Part shown: one piece after another, positions 12,686 through 61,411 of the stretch
How positions within the stretch are numbered: the stretch's first letter is position 1
Layout: each line of letters begins with the position of its first letter
NCBI GenBank assembly: GCA_016195025.1
Contig: JACQAL010000036.1
Span: forward strand, 19,411-83,410
Source of the DNA: Bacteroidota bacterium
GTDB lineage: Bacteria; Bacteroidota; Bacteroidia; Palsa-948
Length of the DNA stretch: 64,000 bases
Direction of reading: 5' to 3'
Program-made: the position numbers and the translations under genes
The notes under the pieces: generated by a model
Database searches by the model: none
What the model saw: the letters and a program-made list of their open reading frames with translations, nothing else
What the model was told of the DNA's origin: nothing

Positions 12686-12719
12686 TCGTAGATTCGTATA
12701 GATTCGTTTTTCGTAGATT
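12686..12719. repeat. intergenic CGAA-periodic element (copy 1) filling the M23-stop to dxr-start spacer
   Basis: cattcgtagattcgtatagattcgtttttcgtagatt holds three ATTCGT units at ~10-bp spacing. It closely resembles the elements at 50307 and 59939. Confidence 0.6.
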
Positions 12720-13605
12720 AAAAAACCATATACTCCTGCGGGTCAATCGGAGTGCCGTTATACCAGAGTTCAAAATGCAAATGCGGTCCGCTGGTTTGCT
12801 CGCCAGAGTTTCCAATCACCGCAATGGCTTCGCCTGCTTTCACAAACTGCCCCGCTTTTTTCATCAGCACCGAGCAATGCTTGTATGCCGACACCAGATT
12901 ATTTGAATGTTGTATCTGAATGGTATAACCCGTTTCAGAAGTCCATCCCGAAAATAAAACTGTTCCGTCAAGCGCGGCTTTGATGGGTTCATTTTCTTTC
13001 GCGGCAATATCCACTCCGTAATGTTCTTCCGCAGAGTTGAACGAAGCGGTTACCATTCCTTTCACAGGAGTGAAAAAGAAAAAGCTGCTGATTCCTTTTC
13101 CGTTTTTATTTTCTGAAAACGCCAGCGAATATTTATCCTGCGATTCCACTTCCGAACGGAATGCGACTTCTTCTTTGGTGGGTTTGATGTCTGCATTTTT
13201 CGGAACAGGATTTTTTTCTGTTTTATTTTTTTGAACCGCTGTGTCTCCTGAAACATTTCCGTTCAGAATATTTTTCAGGTTGTCCATTGCCTGCGTGCGC
13301 AGGTTCAATTCATATTGCAGCGAATCAAGTTTCAGCGAAAGATTGATGAGTTCCTGCCTCGTATTCACTTCCAAGCCGTAGCCGGGAATGTATTCGCGCA
13401 GCGGAGTGAATGCAACTAAACTTACGGTGAGCGTTATCATCACAATCGAAATCAATCCCACAAGCACAAAAATATTTAATGGGGTAAGCTTGAGAGAAAA
13501 TTGCTCCTCGAAAGAATCATCGTTCATCACCACCAGCCGGTAGCGATTGCGGATTTTCGCCCAGAAACCCTGTTTTTTCTTTTCTTCCATATAATAAGGT
13601 AGCAA
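12718..13605 (-). CDS. M23 family metallopeptidase with an N-terminal TM anchor
   Basis: HxxxD...GNSG...HLHFE motifs of LytM/M23 peptidases. Confidence 0.75.
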   Translation of the reverse strand: MLPYYMEEKKKQGFWAKIRNRYRLVVMNDDSFEEQFSLKLTPLNIFVLVGLISIVMITLTVSLVAFTPLREYIPGYGLEVNTRQELINLSLKLDSLQYELNLRTQAMDNLKNILNGNVSGDTAVQKNKTEKNPVPKNADIKPTKEEVAFRSEVESQDKYSLAFSENKNGKGISSFFFFTPVKGMVTASFNSAEEHYGVDIAAKENEPIKAALDGTVLFSGWTSETGYTIQIQHSNNLVSAYKHCSVLMKKAGQFVKAGEAIAVIGNSGEQTSGPHLHFELWYNGTPIDPQEYMVF

Positions 13606-13637
13606 AGATAGAAAAACTCACCCCGTCCTTCCGGACA

Positions 13638-13662
13638 CCCCTCTCTTTGCGAAAGAGAGGGG
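13638..13662. promoter_or_regulatory. perfect 25-bp GC-rich palindrome (11-bp arms) in the divergent M23/sir intergenic region
   Basis: cccctctcttt gcg aaagagagggg. No flanking T or A run, so it is not a canonical terminator. Confidence 0.5.
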
Positions 13663-13741
13663 AAGGGGTAAGTTCCAAAAAATAAATTTGGTGGTTTCAA
13701 AAAGGTTTGTACATTTGCCTACTAAATTGGTCGAGTTTCAA

Positions 13742-13831
13742 ATGAAGACAAAAATTACTTTCCAGACAATTATGACAATGTGTTGCTGCTGCTATATGCG
13801 GACGAGGAAGGGTTTTGTTTTTAAGCGATAA
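13742..13831 (+). CDS. 29-aa Cys-codon leader peptide MKTKITFQTIMTMCCCCYMRTRKGFVFKR upstream of the sulfate-assimilation operon
   Basis: ATG at 13742. Four consecutive Cys codons at 13781-13792, four Met codons, stop TAA at 13829. A terminator hairpin follows directly. Confidence 0.45.
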   Translation: MKTKITFQTIMTMCCCCYMRTRKGFVFKR

Positions 13832-13855
13832 AAAAATAAAACGTAACAGGCAAAA

Positions 13856-13888
13856 GCCCTTCCGAATAAAACCGCGAAGGGCTTTTTT
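13856..13888 (+). terminator. intrinsic terminator/attenuator in the sir leader, with a competing antiterminator
   Basis: Stem gcccttc(13856-62)/gaagggc(13876-82) followed by TTTTTT. The upstream ggaaggg (13805-13811, inside the leader ORF 3' end) can pair with cccttcc (13857-13863). Confidence 0.45.
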
Positions 13889-13934
13889 GTTGCCCGGAAT
13901 CCGAACAAGAATCATAAAAAAGAAAAAATAAAAT

Positions 13935-16055
13935 ATGCAAAGTTTCAGAACAGAGTTAGAAAATCCAATCGTAGAAAAAGACATTCTCGATTTGGAAAAA
14001 AAGATTTCTCTTTTCCGCGAAGGGAAAATTGATTCCGAAAAATTCCGTTCGCTTCGCCTTGCGCGCGGAGTTTACGGGCAGCGCCAGCAGGGAGTGCAGA
14101 TGATTAGGATAAAAATTCCGTTTGGAAAACTTTCGGTAAATCAATTGCTCGCCATCGCGGATATTTCGGATGAATATTCAACAGGCAATCTTCACCTCAC
14201 CACGCGTCAGGATGTGCAGATACATTATGTGTCGCTCGACAAAACTCCTGAACTCTGGGCAAAACTCGAGGCGAGCGACATCACGCTCCGCGAAGCGTGC
14301 GGAAACACAGTACGCAACATCACCGCGTCTGACATCGCGGGCATTGACCCGAAAGAACCTTTTGATGTTACGCCTTACGCGAACGCACTCTTCAAATTCT
14401 TTTTGAGAAATCCTATTCAGGAATCTCTCGGAAGAAAATTCAAGATTGCTTTTTCTTCGAGCGATGACGACACCGCTTATACTTTCATTCACGATTTAGG
14501 ATTTATTCCTAAGGTGAAAATTGAAAATGGAAAAATTGTTCGCGGTTTCAAAGTGGTGATTGGAGGAGGACTTGGTGCTCAACCATTCCTCGCACACACG
14601 GCTTATGAATTCCTGCCGGAAGAAAAAATTATTCCATTCGCGGAAGCAGCAGTCCGCGTGTTTGACCGCTATGGAGAAAGAACCAACCGCCACAAAGCGC
14701 GTTTGAAATATCTCATAGCGAAAATAGGGCTGGGAGAATTTTTGAGATTGGTGGAAGAAGAAACGCTCTCTTTGAAATCTGTTTCGTCAGAAGTTAAATT
14801 TGAATCTGAGATTCCGGATTTATCTCATCTGCAAAATACATTTACAACTTTAAAAATTTCTGACGACAGAAAATATCAGGAATGGTTAGACACAAACACA
14901 TTTGAACAAAAACAGCAGGGATATTTTGCGGTAGGAATAAATGTTCCGTTGGGAAATATAAAAACGAATAACGTTAGGAAGTTCGCAGAGATTGTAAAAA
15001 AATATTCTGCGGATGACATTCGTATTACTATCTCGCAAAACTTTTTGTTGCGCTTTGTTCCGAAACAGGCACTTCCCGCATTGTATAAAGAACTTGACGC
15101 AATCGGTTTGACTTTGCCCGGCTTTGGAAGCATTGCCGATATAACGGCTTGCCCGGGAACAGATACCTGCAATTTGGGAATTTCAAATTCCACAGGCATT
15201 GCGCTCGAACTTGAAAAAGTTATCCGCAATGAATTTTCGGAATTAGTTTACGAAAAGAATATTAAAATAAAAATCAGCGGGTGCATGAATTCCTGCGGAC
15301 AGCATTCGCTCGCGCACATCGGTTTTCACGGAAGCACTTTCAAGGCAGGCGCGCACGTTGTTCCCGCGTTGCAATTGCTTCTCGGTGGCGGTGCAACAGG
15401 AAATGGCGAAGGAAGAATCTCAGATAAGATTGTAAAAATTCCTTCCAAGCGCGGTCCCGCTGTTCTGAGAGCGATTCTTCGTGATTATGAAAAAAATTCT
15501 TTGCAGGAAGAAACCTTCAACGAATATTTTGACGCGCAGGGAAGAGAATATTTTGAAAATCTTTTGAAAGAGTTTACGGATTTATCTGCGCTCACCAATG
15601 ATGAATATAAAGATTGGGGATATGATGAAGCGTTCAAACCTGCAATCGGAGTTGGAGAATGCGCTGGAGTGCAGATTGATTTGGTGGCAACATTATTTTT
15701 TGAAGCAGAAGAAAAACTGGATTCTGCATTCACTTCTTTCGCTGAAAAACTTTTTGCCGATTCAATTTATCATTCATACAGCACATTTATTCATTCTGCA
15801 AAAGCAATATTGCTCACAAAACAAATTCAAACCAATTCTCAGTACAGTGTGCTGAATGAGTTTGAAAAACATTTTATACAGACAGGAGAAGATAAATTTC
15901 AGAATGGATTCAAAACTTTAGTTCTCCAAATTAACCAGACAGAACCTGAAAAAGAATTCGCTGAGTTTTATTTCACGCAGGCAAAATCATTTTTGAAATG
16001 GGTGAAAGAATACCGCGAAGAACAAATTAAAAAGGAAAGTTTAATCACAGCATAG
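13935..16055 (+). CDS. sir: assimilatory sulfite reductase hemoprotein (siroheme/[4Fe-4S], ferredoxin-type) with a C-terminal extension
   Basis: Nitrite/sulfite reductase ferredoxin-like half-domains and Cys clusters (CPGTDTCNLG, SGCMNSCGQH). Sits in an operon with cobA, cysH and cysD. Confidence 0.8.
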   Translation: MQSFRTELENPIVEKDILDLEKKISLFREGKIDSEKFRSLRLARGVYGQRQQGVQMIRIKIPFGKLSVNQLLAIADISDEYSTGNLHLTTRQDVQIHYVSLDKTPELWAKLEASDITLREACGNTVRNITASDIAGIDPKEPFDVTPYANALFKFFLRNPIQESLGRKFKIAFSSSDDDTAYTFIHDLGFIPKVKIENGKIVRGFKVVIGGGLGAQPFLAHTAYEFLPEEKIIPFAEAAVRVFDRYGERTNRHKARLKYLIAKIGLGEFLRLVEEETLSLKSVSSEVKFESEIPDLSHLQNTFTTLKISDDRKYQEWLDTNTFEQKQQGYFAVGINVPLGNIKTNNVRKFAEIVKKYSADDIRITISQNFLLRFVPKQALPALYKELDAIGLTLPGFGSIADITACPGTDTCNLGISNSTGIALELEKVIRNEFSELVYEKNIKIKISGCMNSCGQHSLAHIGFHGSTFKAGAHVVPALQLLLGGGATGNGEGRISDKIVKIPSKRGPAVLRAILRDYEKNSLQEETFNEYFDAQGREYFENLLKEFTDLSALTNDEYKDWGYDEAFKPAIGVGECAGVQIDLVATLFFEAEEKLDSAFTSFAEKLFADSIYHSYSTFIHSAKAILLTKQIQTNSQYSVLNEFEKHFIQTGEDKFQNGFKTLVLQINQTEPEKEFAEFYFTQAKSFLKWVKEYREEQIKKESLITA

Positions 16056-16056
16056 A

Positions 16057-16122
16057 ATGAAAAAGTTTCTGATAAAATATAAGTACGAATACTGTTGTTG
16101 CTGTCGAATGTGTCGAATGTGA
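16057..16122 (+). CDS. second Cys-codon mini-ORF MKKFLIKYKYEYCCCCRMCRM (21 aa), starting 1 nt after the sir stop
   Basis: ATG at 16057. Codons tgt tgt tgc tgt at 16093-16104 plus two more Cys. Stop TGA at 16120. Contains the tandem gtcgaatgt x2. Confidence 0.35.
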   Translation: MKKFLIKYKYEYCCCCRMCRM

Positions 16123-16184
16123 AGTAACTAAAACCGGAAACAAAACACCTGAAACTAAAAACTAATAACTATAAACTAAAAATT

Positions 16185-16958
16185 ATGTCAAACAAAAAAA
16201 TACAACCCAAACTAACTCTCGCAGGCGCAGGTCCCGGAGATCCGGATTTAATCACTGCGAAAGCAATCAACGCACTCGGAAAAGCCGACATTGTTTTGTA
16301 CGATGCGCTTGTAAATCCCGTTCTTCTTAAATATGCTTCACCGAATGTGAAAAAGATTTTCGTAGGAAAAAGAAACGGGCAGCATTCACTCAAGCAGGAG
16401 CAAATCAATAATCTCATAGTGGATTTAGCATTTACTTACGGACACATTGTTCGTTTAAAAGGAGGCGACCCATTTGTTTTCGGGCGCGGCTACGAAGAAA
16501 TTGAATATGCAGAATCATTCAACATAGAAACAGAAGTGATTCCCGGAATTTCTTCTTCAGTAGGCGTTCCTGCACGCGCTGGAATTCCTGTCACGCACCG
16601 TGGAGCCAGCGAAAGTTTCTGGGTGATTACCGGAACTACGCGCACAGGAGAACTTTCAAAAGATATTGCGCTCGCTTCACAGAGCACAGCAACAGTTGTC
16701 ATCCTGATGGGCGTTCATAAACTTCACGAGATTGTGGAAGTTTATAAATCATCCGGAAAAGAAAATCTTCCGATAGCGCTGATTCAGAACGGAACTTTGC
16801 CCGAAGAAAAAATTGCAGTGGGAACAATTTCTACCATAGAGAAAATCGTGAAAGAAAAACAAATCGGTTCGCCTGCAGTGATTGTTGCCGGAGAAGTTGT
16901 GAAACTTCATCCTGAATTTGTAGCGGAAGAAGTTTTGGAAAAATATCTGTTAAATTAA
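16185..16958 (+). CDS. cobA: uroporphyrinogen-III C-methyltransferase (siroheme branch)
   Basis: GAGPGDPDLIT motif and tetrapyrrole methylase fold. Confidence 0.85.
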   Translation: MSNKKIQPKLTLAGAGPGDPDLITAKAINALGKADIVLYDALVNPVLLKYASPNVKKIFVGKRNGQHSLKQEQINNLIVDLAFTYGHIVRLKGGDPFVFGRGYEEIEYAESFNIETEVIPGISSSVGVPARAGIPVTHRGASESFWVITGTTRTGELSKDIALASQSTATVVILMGVHKLHEIVEVYKSSGKENLPIALIQNGTLPEEKIAVGTISTIEKIVKEKQIGSPAVIVAGEVVKLHPEFVAEEVLEKYLLN

Positions 16959-16980
16959 TTTTCGTAAAGCAAAAACAAAA

Positions 16981-18531
16981 ATGGAAACCATAGAAGAAAA
17001 AATTACAATTGAAAAACAGGAAACCAACATCAATAAATTGTTTCCTATTTTTTTAAAGCTGGAGAAACTGAAAGTTCTCATTGTAGGCGGAGGAAATGTT
17101 GCGCTGGAAAAACTGAATGCAGTTCTTGCAAACAGTCCCGAAACGAATATAACTATTGTTGCGCCCGAAATCATAAATGAGATTTTCAAAATCTCCTATG
17201 AAAATGAGAATGTGAAAATAAAACAGCGCGTGTTTTTTCCCGGTGATTTGTTCAATGCAGATATTGTGATTGCCGCCACTGGCGACCACGACACGAACAA
17301 AATCATAAAGGACGAAGCGAAGAAGCGCGAAATGCTTGTGAACGTTGCCGATACTCCGGAGCTTTGCGACTTTTATCTTGGAAGCATTGTGAACAAAGGC
17401 GATTTGAAAATTGCCGTTTCTACAAATGGAAAATCTCCCACGCTTGCCAAGCGCGTCAAGGAAGTTTTGAATGATGCTATTCCGAATGAAACACAAAATG
17501 TTTTGGACAATCTCGAAGTGATTAGAAAAAAGTTGAACGGAAATTTTTCAGAGAAAGTAAAAAAGTTAAATGAAATTACTTCGGTATTAGCAGTGGAAAA
17601 TAATATTCATTCACTTCAGCCACACTTGCTGGTTGAAGAGGAAGAAAAACCAAAATACAAGCAGGCGAAATATTGGGTTATTTATTCCTTCTCCGCAATT
17701 GCATTGATGATTGTCGGGCATCTTTTATTTTCGTATTTGCCGCTGAATGCAATCGGAGGTTATATAGGTGAAGTTGCCGGTAAAATTGACAGCACACTTT
17801 TAATTTTTGTTGTCGGAGGATTTTTGGCGCAAATGGTAGATGGCGCGCTTGGAATGGCGTACGGAGTTACGGCAACAACTTTTCTTTTATCATTCGGAAT
17901 TTCTCCGGCTGCTGCGAGTGCAAGCGTGCACGCTTCGGAAATTTTTACGACCGGTGCTTCCGGAATTTCTCATCTGCGTTTTAAAAATGTGAACACAAAA
18001 TTGTTTCGCAATCTTTTAATCCCGGGAATTCTCGGAGCAATTCTCGGAGCATACATTTTATCTTCTCTGGAAAATTATGCGGTGTATATCAAACCTTTCG
18101 TTTCAGTTTATACATTGATTCTCGGAGTGGTGATTATCCGAAAAGCGATTCGGAAAATCCAGACGAAGAAAAAAATAAAACGAGTCGGACGCCTTGCTTT
18201 CATCGGAGCATTTCTCGATTCCATTGGCGGTGGCGGATGGGGACCGATTGTTTCTTCCACACTTATTGCGCGCGGAAGAAGCTGGCGCTACACCATCGGT
18301 TCGGTAAACCTTGCAGAATTTTTTGTAACACTTGCAAGTTCGATTACATTTTTCACCGTAATAGGAATTCATCACTGGTATGTAATTATCGGTTTAATCA
18401 TTGGCGGAATGATTGCCGCGCCTTTTGCCGCTTATCTCACTTCAAAAATTCCGGTTCGCGCAGGATTAATTACAGTAGGAGTTGTGGTGATTGTTGTAAG
18501 TTTGAGGATTCTTTTTAAAACATTCTTTTAG
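16981..18531 (+). CDS. fusion of a CysG N-terminal-like precorrin-2 dehydrogenase/sirohydrochlorin ferrochelatase domain with a TSUP (TauE/SafE, DUF81) membrane transporter domain
   Basis: Residues ~1-210 carry the Rossmann motif VLIVGGGNVALEK of Met8/CysG-N. Residues ~230-516 are polytopic, with the TSUP glycine motif (LDSIGGGGWGPIV). Confidence 0.7.
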   Translation: METIEEKITIEKQETNINKLFPIFLKLEKLKVLIVGGGNVALEKLNAVLANSPETNITIVAPEIINEIFKISYENENVKIKQRVFFPGDLFNADIVIAATGDHDTNKIIKDEAKKREMLVNVADTPELCDFYLGSIVNKGDLKIAVSTNGKSPTLAKRVKEVLNDAIPNETQNVLDNLEVIRKKLNGNFSEKVKKLNEITSVLAVENNIHSLQPHLLVEEEEKPKYKQAKYWVIYSFSAIALMIVGHLLFSYLPLNAIGGYIGEVAGKIDSTLLIFVVGGFLAQMVDGALGMAYGVTATTFLLSFGISPAAASASVHASEIFTTGASGISHLRFKNVNTKLFRNLLIPGILGAILGAYILSSLENYAVYIKPFVSVYTLILGVVIIRKAIRKIQTKKKIKRVGRLAFIGAFLDSIGGGGWGPIVSSTLIARGRSWRYTIGSVNLAEFFVTLASSITFFTVIGIHHWYVIIGLIIGGMIAAPFAAYLTSKIPVRAGLITVGVVVIVVSLRILFKTFF

Positions 18532-19235
18532 TGAGCGCTGAAAAAATAAATAGAATTGAAAAACTTGTTTCTGGAAAATCTCCGGAAGAATCTCTTGCTT
18601 TGCTTTCAAAAGAATTTTCCGGGACAATAATTTTCTCCACCAGTTTTGGTTTGGAAGACCAGGCAATCACGCATATTATTTTTTCACAAAATGTTCCGAT
18701 AAAAGTTTTCACTCTTGAAACAGGAAGATTGTTTCCCGAAACATATTCTGTTTGGAACAACACCAGAAAAAAATATGGGAAGAACATAGAATCTTTTTCT
18801 CCGAATGAAACCGCAGTGCAGAAATTAGTTTCAGAAAAAGGCCCGAACAGTTTTTATGAATCAGTTGAAAACAGATTAGAATGTTGTTTCATACGCAAAG
18901 TAGAACCGCTGCAGCGCGCGTTGATGGGAAATGAAATCTGGATTACGGGAATCCGAAAAAAACAATCGCAGCACAGAAATATTCTTTCTTCGGTGGAATG
19001 GGATGAGAAAAACAATATTGTAAAGTTTCATCCTTTGTTTGACTGGAGTTTTGATGAAGTAAAAAGTTTTATAAAGAAAAATAATATTCCCTATAATTCT
19101 TTGCACGACAAAGGATTTCCCAGTATCGGATGTCAGCCCTGCACGCGAGCAGTAAAAAACGGAGAAGATGCCCGAGCGGGAAGATGGTGGTGGGAAGACA
19201 CAACTAAAAAAGAATGCGGATTACATACACATTGA
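18531..19235 (+). CDS. cysH: phosphoadenylyl-sulfate (PAPS) reductase, thioredoxin-dependent
   Basis: The C-terminus ...SIGCQPCTR...ECGLH matches E. coli CysH. No CC...CxxC Fe-S motif is present. Confidence 0.85.
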   Translation: MSAEKINRIEKLVSGKSPEESLALLSKEFSGTIIFSTSFGLEDQAITHIIFSQNVPIKVFTLETGRLFPETYSVWNNTRKKYGKNIESFSPNETAVQKLVSEKGPNSFYESVENRLECCFIRKVEPLQRALMGNEIWITGIRKKQSQHRNILSSVEWDEKNNIVKFHPLFDWSFDEVKSFIKKNNIPYNSLHDKGFPSIGCQPCTRAVKNGEDARAGRWWWEDTTKKECGLHTH

Positions 19236-19238
19236 ATT

Positions 19239-20144
19239 ATGAAATATCATTTAGATTATCTTGACCAACTCGAATCCGAATCTATTCACATTTTTCGTGA
19301 AGTGGTGGGGCAATTTGAACGCCCTGCGCTTTTATTTTCCGGAGGAAAAGATTCCATCACATTAGTTCATCTTGCACTGAAAGCATTCCGTCCGGGAAAA
19401 TTTCCCTTTCCTTTAGTTCACATTGATACCGAACATAATTTTCCGGAAGCAATTCAGTTCAGAGACGAGTTGGTAAAAAAAATAGGAGAGAAATTAATTG
19501 TGCGAAGTGTTGGAGATACGATTAAACAAAAAGGATTGGTTGAACAAAGAGGAAGATTCTACAGCCGAAACGCTTTGCAAACCTATACGTTGCTTGACAC
19601 GATTGAAGAATTCCGTTTTGATGCTTGTATTGGTGGAGCACGCAGAGATGAAGAAAAAGCGCGAGCGAAAGAAAGAGTTTTTTCTGTGCGTGATGAATTC
19701 GGGCAGTGGGATCCGAAAAAACAAAGACCGGAGTTGTGGAGCATTTACAACGGAAGAATCCGTCAGGGAGAAAATGTGCGCGTGTTTCCGATTTCCAACT
19801 GGACAGAACTGGACGTTTGGAATTACATCAAGCGTGAGAAAATTGATTTGCCTTCCATTTATTTTTCTCACAAAAGAAAATGCATTGTTCGCCCCGGTGG
19901 CTTGCTGGCACTGACTGATTTTGTTTACACCGATGCGGACGATAGAATTGAAGAAAGAAAAGTTCGCTTCCGTACTGTTGGTGATGCAACATGTACCGCT
20001 GCGGTAGAATCAGAAGCAAATTCACTGGATGATATCATCCGTGAAATAGAAGAAACAAAAATCTCCGAACGCGGTGCAACGCGTTTGGATGACCAAACTT
20101 CCGATGCTTCGATGGAAGACAGGAAAAAGGGTGGTTATTTCTAA
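19239..20144 (+). CDS. cysD: sulfate adenylyltransferase subunit 2
   Basis: PP-loop SGGKDS and strong CysD similarity throughout. Confidence 0.9.
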   Translation: MKYHLDYLDQLESESIHIFREVVGQFERPALLFSGGKDSITLVHLALKAFRPGKFPFPLVHIDTEHNFPEAIQFRDELVKKIGEKLIVRSVGDTIKQKGLVEQRGRFYSRNALQTYTLLDTIEEFRFDACIGGARRDEEKARAKERVFSVRDEFGQWDPKKQRPELWSIYNGRIRQGENVRVFPISNWTELDVWNYIKREKIDLPSIYFSHKRKCIVRPGGLLALTDFVYTDADDRIEERKVRFRTVGDATCTAAVESEANSLDDIIREIEETKISERGATRLDDQTSDASMEDRKKGGYF

Positions 20145-20165
20145 GAAAACATTATAAAAAATTTG

Positions 20166-20247
20166 TAGGCGAGAGAGGATTTGAACCTCCACGGGTTTCC
20201 CCACTGGTTTCTAAGACCAGCACGTCTGCCAGTTCCGCCACTCGCCC
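20166..20247 (-). tRNA. tRNA-Leu (anticodon TAG), type II with a long variable arm
   Basis: Hand-folded cloverleaf. Acceptor GGGCGAG/CTCGCCT, anticodon loop CTTAGAA, variable arm TGGGGAAACCCGT, T-loop TTCAAAT. No encoded CCA. Confidence 0.8.
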
Positions 20248-21364: not shown

Positions 21365-21973
21365 ATAGGAGGAATCGAAAAATGTATGCCAACTATCGAA
21401 AGAAAATTAAAAAATTATTTTCCGTTCTATCTTTGAATAGAATGTTCTTTGAAGTATAGTAGCCGGCAGAAAAAGGAAAAAAACAAAAGGTTGTTCTACC
21501 GCTAAAACAGTAATCCAACTTAGGTTTTTGAGTTTTTCTCCGGCGATATATATACAATGGCTGAAGAAGTTAGTATGAGAATTATTTTTCTTGAGCCGAT
21601 AATGAGAAAGGGCGGCTTTCGCAGAATTTTTTCCTGACGGAAAAGGCATTGCAGTAAAAAAATCTACTCTGCGAAAGCGCTCGGACTCATTAAATATGAT
21701 AGAAACTATTTTCTCATCCTGCATCAACGGATGATGATATCATCGTTTCGAGACAAAGTTGAAGTCAGATAAGAGGTTGGATGAGAAAAAACGCAGGCAG
21801 AGAGGACGAGAGCAATTTACCGATTTATCGGCATTTTGCTACTTCCTCTCAGAATGCTTGCGTGATGTAAATTATAAGCCGCAGAACTGCAAAACGGGTA
21901 GGAAAATATTTTTAGAAAAAAAAATTTTGATTCCTGTACTTGCGAATGAAAAAGATTCTGCGGTTTATTTTTG

Positions 21974-22045
21974 TGGTCTCACCCGGATTCGAACCGGGAT
22001 TTTGAGCTCCGGAGACCCATGTACTATCCATTATACTATAAGACC
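21974..22045 (-). tRNA. tRNA-Arg (anticodon CCG)
   Basis: Cloverleaf with anticodon loop CTCCGGA, identical to the E. coli Arg-CCG loop. T-arm CCCGG/TTCGAAT/CCGGG. Confidence 0.7.
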
Positions 22046-22076
22046 AAAAAATAGAATTACAAAAGCGAAGAAAATG

Positions 22077-22160
22077 TGCCCGGAAAAGGAATCGAACCTT
22101 CACGGTATTGCTACCATTGGTGTTTGAGACCAACGCGTCTACCAGTTCCGCCATCCGGGC
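22077..22160 (-). tRNA. tRNA-Leu (anticodon CAA), type II
   Basis: GCCCGGATGGCGGAACTGGTAGACGCG..., anticodon loop CTCAAAC, long variable arm, T-loop TTCGATT. Confidence 0.8.
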
Positions 22161-61318: not shown

Positions 61319-61337
61319 ATTATTCATTAAAATTTTG

Positions 61338-61411
61338 TGGGCCCTGCTGGGAACGATCCAGCGACCCTCAGATTATGAGTCTGATGCTCTAACCAGCTGA
61401 GCTAAGGGCCC
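61338..61411 (-). tRNA. tRNA with anticodon CAT, most similar to the tRNA-Ile2 (lysidine) type
   Basis: The cloverleaf GGGCCCTTAGCTCAGCTGGTTAGAGCA... with anticodon loop CTCATAA. Its acceptor and T-stem are near-identical to E. coli tRNA-Ile2. The T-loop reads ATCGTTC. Confidence 0.7.

Follow-up and report, generated by a model that had tools for sequence, protein, structure and literature searches.

The question raised by this locus is whether a short open reading frame (ORF) rich in Cys codons, placed upstream of a sulfate-reduction operon, acts as a sensor that controls the operon. The locus lies in a 64,000-nucleotide stretch of contig JACQAL010000036.1 (GenBank assembly GCA_016195025.1, positions 19,411 to 83,410) from a Bacteroidota bacterium; we refer to this whole stretch as the window and give positions within it. 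The operon occupies 13935–20144 (+) and begins with the sulfite reductase gene sir. An earlier reading of the letters and translations of the window (the sequence-only reading) had proposed that the ORF belongs to a ribosome-mediated attenuator of the trpL, hisL and leuL type. To our knowledge, the regulation of sulfate assimilation in Bacteroidota is essentially unknown. Based on our analysis, the element is likely a ribosome-mediated transcription attenuator of the classical four-segment type, which is tuned to tRNA-Cys charging and controls the sulfate-reduction operon, and the proposed logic is supported by leaders, terminators and antiterminators that recur in relatives. The attenuator is probably also tuned to the charging of elongator tRNA-Met.

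A Cys-rich leader ORF upstream of sir

Reading of positions 13400–14300 placed the leader ORF at 13742–13831 (+), with an ATG start codon at 13742 and a TAA stop codon at 13829–13831; the 29 codons encode MKTKITFQTIMTMCCCCYMRTRKGFVFKR. This confirmed the 29-codon mini-ORF with four consecutive Cys codons that had been described before. The Cys codons occupy 13781–13792, and Met codons are found at 13772–13774, 13778–13780 and 13796–13798; together, based on the sequence and its six-frame translation, they make up a regulatory block that reads M-T-M-C-C-C-C-Y-M (13772–13798, +). In the six-frame translation of the 64-kb window, two CCCC runs were identified compared with 0.12 expected from triplet frequency, and both fall in non-coding parts of the sulfate-reduction operon. 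Because there are two runs against this expectation, both in one operon, the run in the leader exceeds chance. A minus-strand ORF that overlaps the leader (13697–13984, 95 amino acids [aa]) matched no Pfam family and was treated as spurious.

Terminator, antiterminator and competing helices

Based on fold and duplex predictions, the leader holds all four segments of a classical attenuator. Segment 1 (13743–13762, +), the anti-antiterminator strand, was taken from the minimum-free-energy fold of the full leader. Segment 2 (13806–13820, +; GGAAGGGUUUUGUUU), the 5' strand of the antiterminator, was identified by duplex prediction and lies within codons R22–F27 of the ORF. Fold prediction defined segment 3 (13848–13864, +), which is common to the antiterminator (13848–13863) and the 5' arm of the terminator (13852–13864), and segment 4 (13873–13888, +), in which the 3' arm of the terminator (13873–13886) overlaps a T6 tract (13883–13888).

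The intrinsic terminator is as the sequence-only reading described it: gcccttc (13856–13862) pairs with gaagggc (13876–13882), and the T6 tract follows. With flanking A/U pairs and a two-pair extension beyond a one-base bulge, the stem spans 13852–13864 and 13873–13886. Folded alone, the terminator reaches −22 kcal/mol (z = −3.9), which none of 200 shuffled sequences equaled, and it ends 46 nt upstream of the sir ATG. A consensus terminator scan of the region found no terminator at the leader, because the scan model disallows a bulged, long-looped stem.

The antiterminator helix (2:3) pairs GGAAGGGTTTT (in RNA form, GGAAGGGUUUU; 13806–13816) with AAAGCCCTTCC (AAAGCCCUUCC; 13853–13863). It consists of 11 contiguous base pairs, including one G-U, and 4 more pairs past a one-base bulge (13817–13820 with 13848–13851). 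The duplex was predicted at −18.1 to −19.5 kcal/mol, and none of 200 shuffled segments equaled it. The pairing of ggaaggg with the 5' arm of the terminator had been proposed before and held up in this analysis; its position required correction (13806–13812 rather than 13805–13811), as did its length (11–15 rather than 7 base pairs).

The competing 1:2 helix joins 13743–13753 with 13813–13823 and 13758–13762 with 13806–13810, and is among the helices of the minimum-free-energy fold predicted for the untranslated leader. The predicted energies of the three helices are −14.6 kcal/mol for 1:2, −19.5 kcal/mol for 2:3 and −22.0 kcal/mol for 3:4. As a whole, the leader (13735–13895) folds better than its shuffled counterparts (z = −3.3).

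Predicted ribosome positions and proposed mechanism

The modeled ribosome had a footprint that we assumed to reach from −15 to +12 nt relative to the first A-site base. When it occupied any one of the Cys codons, the nascent RNA as far as 13872 was predicted to fold into the antiterminator (−18.5 kcal/mol), and all four stalls leave 13806 onward free; in the footprint model, a ribosome stalled at the Cys codons thus frees the antiterminator, as had been proposed. With M19 in the A site, the antiterminator was no longer the best fold. Once the ribosome was placed at the stop codon, the 3' RNA left free was predicted to form the terminator alone. The further claim that a ribosome at the stop codon masks the antiterminator held for its 3' end only: the assumed footprint (~13814–13841) covers just the 3' part of segment 2, and the ribosome would otherwise block pairing by sitting between segments 2 and 3.

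When we compared folds with and without ribosome masking, the antiterminator was obtained on nascent RNA and not on the complete transcript, where the terminator wins. Equilibrium folds with a masked ribosome never gave the antiterminator on the complete transcript, and we rejected a purely thermodynamic switch. Because the terminator always wins at equilibrium (−27.4 compared with −18.5 kcal/mol), the switch must be kinetic.

Under the proposed mechanism, transcription would probably begin a few bases past a −7 box (13710–13717), and a ribosome would load at the AUG at 13742. With ample Cys-tRNA, the ribosome would pass segment 2 and reach the stop codon at 13829 while the polymerase makes segments 3 and 4; segment 2 would then be inside or just behind the ribosome, with the ribosome between segments 2 and 3, and the terminator (13852–13864 paired with 13873–13886, then U6) would form and end the transcript at ~13888. 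When Cys-tRNA is scarce, the ribosome would stall at 13781–13792 with its leading edge ~12 nt past the A site, short of 13806. Scarcity of Met-tRNA would probably have the same outcome by way of the two upstream Met codons. The stall would keep segment 1 off segment 2, which could then pair with segment 3 once it emerges; with the antiterminator formed, the terminator would come too late, and the polymerase would read into sir. If the leader were untranslated, segment 1 could pair with segment 2, again favoring termination. In this scheme we infer the start of transcription, the translation of the ORF, the stalling, the kinetic competition and the response to sulfur supply.

Cys leaders ahead of sir across Bacteroidota

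Using Sir as the query, we collected 80 loci from species-representative genomes (58–67% aa identity; all or nearly all Bacteroidota) and 80 loci from metagenomes (58–74% identity), of which 72 were used for counts. A locus was scored as carrying a leader if an ATG-initiated mini-ORF with at least two adjacent Cys codons occurred within 400 nt upstream of sir. In the genome set, 44/80 loci carried such a mini-ORF in the sense direction, compared with 5/80 in the antisense direction and 1–9/80 in 20 dinucleotide shuffles; when three adjacent Cys codons were required, the counts were 21 sense, 0 antisense and 0–1 in shuffles. The metagenome set gave 38/72 sense and 4/72 antisense loci (23 and 0 with three adjacent Cys codons). 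The sequence elements are therefore conserved and strand-specifically enriched in approximately half of 152 related loci, in agreement with the expectation that the Cys-run mini-ORF is kept in orthologous sir leaders. Carriers include Pedobacter (MNFNFIPNQLIAMQMMCCCKTQ), Mucilaginibacter (MKTNFTHKTTLMYCCMRSDRPWL), Pontibacter (…MCCCCCCSC), Chitinophaga, Rhodocytophaga, one Cyclobacteriaceae genome, one Flavobacteriales genome and many Bacteroidia.

At some seemingly leaderless loci, the leader lies farther upstream, ahead of an extra first gene. This gene encodes an aldo/keto reductase in locus L003 (1335–2207, +) and a peroxiredoxin in L027 (2345–2977, +), and tandem leaders precede it; loci L002 and L004 have ORFs that resemble the aldo/keto reductase of L003 by size. 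In L007, sir comes after a cysN-like gene.

The closest relative in the collection is metagenome contig Ga0247727_10003553 (L082), whose Sir is 74% identical to that of the window. It has a single leader, MKTKITFQTMMMCCCMCMRNWKDFVFMR, and its element is 87% identical to that of the window at the DNA level. The whole element is retained in L082, and its regulatory codons are still Cys and Met; the block reads I-M-T-M-C-C-C-C-Y-M in the window and M-M-M-C-C-C-M-C-M in L082, such that composition is kept and order is not. This reshuffling of Cys and Met therefore fits selection on codon content rather than on the peptide. The 1:2 helix is also predicted in L082, where one U-G pair is replaced by C-G.

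Terminators and antiterminators in related loci

In most lineages, a hairpin and T-run follow the Cys leader. Among 58 leader-terminator pairs of the genome set, which are not independent of each other, 24 had a predicted antiterminator duplex with shuffle p ≤ 0.05.

In close relatives of the window, two distinct Cys/Met leader-terminator units, here called types A and B, occur one after the other. These tandem units lie 150–1350 nt upstream of sir (L001, L003, L004, L005, L008, L012, L033, L039, L081, L083, L086, L087 and others). In type A, the leader (MNNNFTYTLT..MMCCMMCA) is followed within a few nt of its stop codon by the antiterminator strand GGAAAGCC, and the terminator is GGCUUUCC…GGGAAGCC-U6. 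In type B, the leader is M…MCMCCMMYLRMRKA..MHYCKR, the antiterminator strand GCGGAAGG lies inside the ORF and encodes a conserved Arg-Lys, and the terminator is GCCCUUCCGC…GAAGGGC-U6. Of the two types, only B occurs in the window and in L082; the 137-nt space upstream of the leader in the window contains no type A leader and has an 11-bp palindrome instead. Type-B leaders in L001, L003–L005, L012, L033, L039 and L083 have an extra conserved single Cys codon two codons before the stop (…MHYCKR*), which the leader in the window lacks. This codon is well downstream of the antiterminator strand, and a stall there would not favor antitermination.

We aligned 18 type-B sequences, comprising the window and 17 further loci, with the tested structure taken from one aligned sequence. 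The terminator pairs of the window form in 89.5% of cells of this alignment and its antiterminator pairs in 68.8%, compared with 38–62% when the antiterminator register is slid. Each of the six core pairs GGAAGG/CCUUCC is possible in 13–16 of the 18 sequences, and GCCCTTCC, within segment 3, is nearly invariant across type-B elements.

Because the type-B stems are too invariant for a strong covariation signal, we used a swap test across lineages. Across 47 distinct terminator arms, segments downstream of the Cys codons had more favorable predicted pairing with their own arm than with foreign arms (mean difference, −2.9 kcal/mol; mean rank, 0.28 compared with 0.5 expected; Wilcoxon p = 4e-6). 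In type A, the antiterminator changes along with the terminator arm in L027, L054 and L002: most loci combine antiterminator GGAAAGCC with terminator 5' arm GGCUUUCC, L027 combines GAAAAGC with GCUUUUC, and L054 combines UGAGAAGC with GCCUCUCA. The anticipated covariation of terminator and antiterminator is thus borne out across lineages and in type A, and it is modest within type B.

Methionine codons and a SAM riboswitch

Loci L001–L160 and the window yielded 97 distinct leader peptides. In these, 35% of the non-Cys residues that fall in the Cys cluster or at most three residues from it are Met, compared with 4.6% elsewhere (odds ratio, 11; nominal Fisher p ~1e-67, with sequences that are related to each other). 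The codon content suggests that the leaders read both sulfur amino acids, Cys and Met. Joint reading is plausible because the sulfide produced by the operon feeds both.

Within Pontibacter toksunensis (L013), an S-adenosylmethionine (SAM) riboswitch (RF00162, 63 bits; 2394–2495, +) directly precedes the poly-Cys leader ORF and sir. This tandem is another way to combine a signal from the Met branch with a Cys signal.

Evidence against attenuation and alternative explanations

Several results weigh against the reading of the element as an attenuator. In the fold models, the complete leader RNA favors the terminator in every state, and read-through therefore rests on an assumed kinetic trap and on tight coupling between ribosome and polymerase; we know of no studies of such coupling in these organisms. 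A ribosome at the stop codon overlaps only ~3–7 nt of the antiterminator strand, and masking is a steric argument. Upstream of the leader, the promoter pattern TTTG-N18–20-TANNTTTG has 3 matches in the window compared with 2.1 expected by chance and is weak alone. Antiterminators predicted in Pedobacter and most Mucilaginibacter are weak (~−7 kcal/mol; shuffle p ~0.1–0.8). Covariation within type B is modest: the terminator has three pairs changed on both sides, and the antiterminator scores 0.158 compared with 0.116 when shuffled. This weakness arises because the three mutually complementary segments are almost invariant. Finally, approximately half of the sir loci lack a Cys leader, and some of these have an Rrf2 regulator gene upstream instead.

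One such gene, in a leaderless Mucilaginibacter locus (L034), encodes an Rrf2-family regulator (Pfam E = 2e-37; 2404–2838, +) upstream of sir, and similar 144-aa ORFs were found upstream of sir in L049, L055, L061, L069–L071, L074 and L080. This arrangement suggests that protein-based control may replace the attenuator in leaderless Mucilaginibacter loci.

The alternative that survives best, although we consider it improbable, accepts the mini-ORF as a sensor of Cys-tRNA and assigns control to translation or Rho-dependent polarity, with the hairpin either incidental or a constitutive partial terminator. Cys leaders without terminators in Actinobacteria (PMC1262725) and the mycobacterial ORF Ms5788A, which acts on translation (bioRxiv 10.1101/834739), provide precedents. 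A second Cys mini-ORF without a terminator indicates that a terminator-independent mode probably exists in the same operon, and the weak antiterminator pairing in some lineages also fits this alternative. It does not account for the canonical strong terminator directly after the ORF in the window, for the hairpin and T-run in most lineages or for the specific complementarity between the post-Cys segment and the 5' arm of its own terminator; moreover, with 46 nt between the end of the terminator and the sir ATG, the start codon is left unoccluded.

Alternatively, the ORF could encode a functional Cys/Met-rich small peptide, either metal- or redox-active or a precursor of a modified peptide, whose gene lies ahead of the operon or is co-transcribed with it and has the hairpin as its terminator. 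Small ORFs that are conserved often prove to encode real proteins, the N-terminal sequence MKTKITFQT is identical in the window and L082, and type-B leaders share the -MHYCKR tail. Outside the Cys/Met cluster, however, the peptides are unrelated between lineages and range from ~17 to 45 residues, and within it Cys and Met are permuted between the window and L082, as expected from selection on codon content. The conserved basic residues past the cluster are encoded by the antiterminator nucleotides (GCGGAAGG or GGAAGGG), each tandem copy has its own terminator, which would be odd for a peptide gene, and the element is always directly ahead of sulfate-assimilation genes. Together, these features make a functional peptide very unlikely.

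We rate equally low the explanation that the terminated leader transcript is a trans-acting small RNA to which the Cys ORF is secondary, a role that could coexist with attenuation. When sulfur is sufficient, the leader should yield a stable transcript of ~165 nt that ends at the terminator, and the Sinorhizobium trp attenuator RNA (rnTrpL, with peptide peTrpL) is a precedent. The leader is also more conserved relative to L082 than expected (87% identity for leader DNA compared with 74% for Sir); this conservation, however, is explained by three mutually complementary segments together with coding constraints. The transcript has no known target, and small RNA-like Rfam matches (InvR, BTnc231) are far below threshold.

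A chance ORF beside an ordinary hairpin is hardly credible: AT-rich intergenic DNA often contains short ORFs and hairpins and the promoter match is no better than chance, but this explanation is already contradicted by the 0.12 CCCC runs expected in the whole window and by strand-specific enrichment in two independent locus sets. The antiterminator (equaled by 0/200 shuffles) and the leader fold (z = −3.3) also speak against it.

Comparison with known systems

Attenuation of transcription remains the preferred reading, and we compared the element with known regulators of this kind. Using Rfam 15 with a permissive E-value on positions 13000–14500, the best matches reached 14–20 bits compared with gathering thresholds of 42–114. 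These below-threshold matches included Phe_leader (18.3 bits; gathering threshold, 55), InvR (19.8 compared with 60 bits), BTnc231 (14.1 compared with 80.4) and ohsC, and we treated them as noise. At the gathering score, Rfam identified only four tRNAs in the whole window and, across 11 related loci, only the SAM riboswitch in L013; no riboswitch or T-box model matches the leader in the window. In the literature, we found no Cys leader in Bacteroidota and no terminator-based Cys attenuator, in a search that left out most subscription journals and also the study by Lyubetsky et al. 2014 (Comput Biol Chem) of genes that accompany Cys-tract leader peptides, which may mention such leaders outside Actinobacteria. 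The sequence-only reading had been aware of no Cys-leader family described for Bacteroidota; this agrees with Rfam 15 and the searched literature, and Cys leaders as such are already known elsewhere. The element probably belongs to a known kind of regulator as an undescribed member, within which it most likely represents a new family.

Like the classical attenuators of E. coli and Salmonella (trpL, hisL, leuL, thrL and pheL), the element has a short ORF with a run of codons for the end product, mutually exclusive 1:2, 2:3 and 3:4 helices, and a 3:4 terminator with a U tract before the first gene. The 3:4 terminator is predicted to be more stable than the competing helices and the switch to be kinetic, as in those systems. 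The thrL and ilv leaders resemble it in that more than one amino acid is apparently read. The element differs in its amino acids (Cys and Met), its target (a sulfate-reduction operon) and its phylum (Bacteroidota). In addition, the antiterminator strand in the window lies inside the ORF, 14 nt past the last Cys codon and 9–23 nt before the stop codon, sequence and covariance-model similarity to any Rfam leader is absent, and the close relatives of the window combine two distinct attenuators in tandem.

Cys leaders have been described in other phyla. In Mycobacterium smegmatis, the polycysteine upstream ORF Ms5788A, ahead of cysA2, acts on translation rather than termination: it occludes the ribosome-binding site of the next gene, resulting in translational attenuation with polar effects (bioRxiv 10.1101/834739). 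The authors of this 2020 study knew of no described Cys leader-peptide attenuator (bioRxiv 10.1101/834739). Across Actinobacteria, Cys leader peptides were predicted upstream of cys operons, without terminators (PMC1262725). These upstream ORFs resemble the element in having consecutive Cys codons ahead of sulfur genes, with a stall (for the element, a proposed one) that signals cysteine shortage and relieves repression. Whereas they are leaderless and lack an intrinsic terminator, the element in the window has a terminator/antiterminator pair, a probable 5' untranslated stretch of ~20 nt and interleaved Met codons. A leadered mRNA is suggested by the promoter-like match, whose end lies 24 nt before the AUG, but this match is weak. 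In the predicted folds, the Cys tract does not pair with the ribosome-binding region of sir; the Cys codons pair only locally in the leader, and the leader terminator does not reach the sir start. Translation starts in Bacteroidota are generally independent of Shine-Dalgarno pairing. The part of the window most like the actinobacterial type is the terminator-less second mini-ORF (16057–16122).

A Cys-containing leader peptide has also been predicted for cysS of Deinococcus deserti (PMC4007540). Like the element, it is a short 5' ORF that contains Cys codons and has been proposed as an attenuator of a cysteine-related gene; it differs in having two Cys codons, a leaderless mRNA, a tRNA synthetase gene as its target, another phylum and no comparative or structural analysis.

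Leader-peptide attenuation is known within Bacteroidota from the Bacteroid-trp motif (PMC9723704), and in Flavobacterium psychrophilum hisG is preceded by a His-rich leader (MSLNQLHHHHFHICSQAKC) and ilvE by an Ile-rich one (PMC9723704 supplement). These leaders belong to the same phylum and follow the same logic as the element; they serve Trp, His and branched-chain amino acids, whereas none for Cys, Met or sulfate assimilation appeared in the searched texts. In Firmicutes, the SAM (S-box) riboswitch and the Cys T-box likewise act by premature termination at the RNA level ahead of sulfur-metabolism operons; they differ in that the RNA senses the metabolite or uncharged tRNA directly, with no translated ORF.

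Tentatively, and with slightly more doubt than confidence, we propose that Bacteroidota have a family of undescribed attenuators that read Cys and Met through a terminator and antiterminator. The family would be modular, occurring singly, as tandem A/B units and behind a SAM riboswitch, and the terminator-less internal mini-ORF would be a separate ribosome-based checkpoint.

If this reading is correct, it would offer a first point of entry into the sulfur regulation of a major phylum, with a testable cis-regulator in cultivable Pedobacter, Mucilaginibacter, Chitinophaga and Pontibacter. Cysteine has long been without a leader-peptide attenuator, and a terminator-based Cys (and Met) leader would be the first, filling this gap; it would be unusual, too, for a leader to read Met codons in addition. 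Gene callers overlook the mini-ORFs, which Rfam also lacks, and their annotation would improve operon models. For Bacteroidota genetic tools, the mini-ORF leaders could serve as a compact sulfur-responsive switch, and the tandem and SAM-riboswitch-coupled layouts would be natural stacked RNA logic.

The downstream operon and its second mini-ORF

Based on ORF calls and Pfam domains, the operon encodes sulfite reductase (sir, 13935–16055, +), a cobA-like tetrapyrrole (uroporphyrinogen-III-type) methylase (16185–16958, +), a sirohaem-synthase/TauE fusion (16981–18531, +) and two products with PAPS_reduct domains (18531–19235 and 19239–20144, both +). Judged by length, the last two are probably PAPS reductase CysH and sulfate adenylyltransferase subunit CysD. 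In the ORF list, no cysN-like gene was found directly after the cysD-like gene (19239–20144). The Pfam domains agree with the earlier assignment of the downstream genes to the sulfate-reduction branch of cysteine synthesis.

The second CCCC run in the six-frame translation belongs to another mini-ORF (MKKFLIKYKYEYCCCCRMCRM; 16057–16122, +), which begins 2 nt past the sir stop codon (16055) and ends 62 nt before the cobA-like ATG (16185). Mini-ORFs at the same place were identified in L082 (MKTFFIHIRYEYCCCMRMR), L019, L022, L084, L005, L039 and L086. No terminator follows the mini-ORF in the window, and the region has no significant structure (fold z = 0.06); the sir-cobA spacer is rich in A, and a hand count gave more C (11) than G (4). 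The second mini-ORF may share the control system of the leader. With this spacer composition, Rho-dependent polarity or an effect on translation of the next gene would be speculative candidates for its mode of action.

Promoter and flanking DNA

A pattern match identified a candidate Bacteroidota-type promoter at 13687–13717 (+), with a −33 element (TTTG, 13687–13690), a 19-nt spacer and a −7 element (TACATTTG, 13710–13717); its end is 24 nt from the leader ATG. The −33/−7 consensus is derived from Bacteroides and Flavobacterium promoters. The −7 box and its flanks are identical in L082. A sigma-70 consensus scan returned a single promoter-like site inside the upstream gene, which is irrelevant to Bacteroidota promoters. 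This upstream gene encodes an M23 peptidase (12718–13605) and is divergent; because of this orientation, the leader hairpin ends no other gene.

Between the divergent M23 peptidase gene and the leader promoter lies a perfect 11-bp inverted repeat, CCCCTCTCTTT-GCG-AAAGAGAGGGG (13638–13662), which is unique in the window; a shorter form (CCCCTC…GAGGGG) is present in L082. No T-run follows the repeat on either strand, and it could be an operator or part of the 5' leader of the divergent gene. The four tRNA genes in the window are all on the minus strand: Leu(tag) at 20165–20247, Arg(ccg) at 21973–22045, Leu(caa) at 22076–22160 and Met(cat) at 61337–61411. The first of these, tRNA Leu(tag), lies directly beyond the end of the sulfate-assimilation operon.

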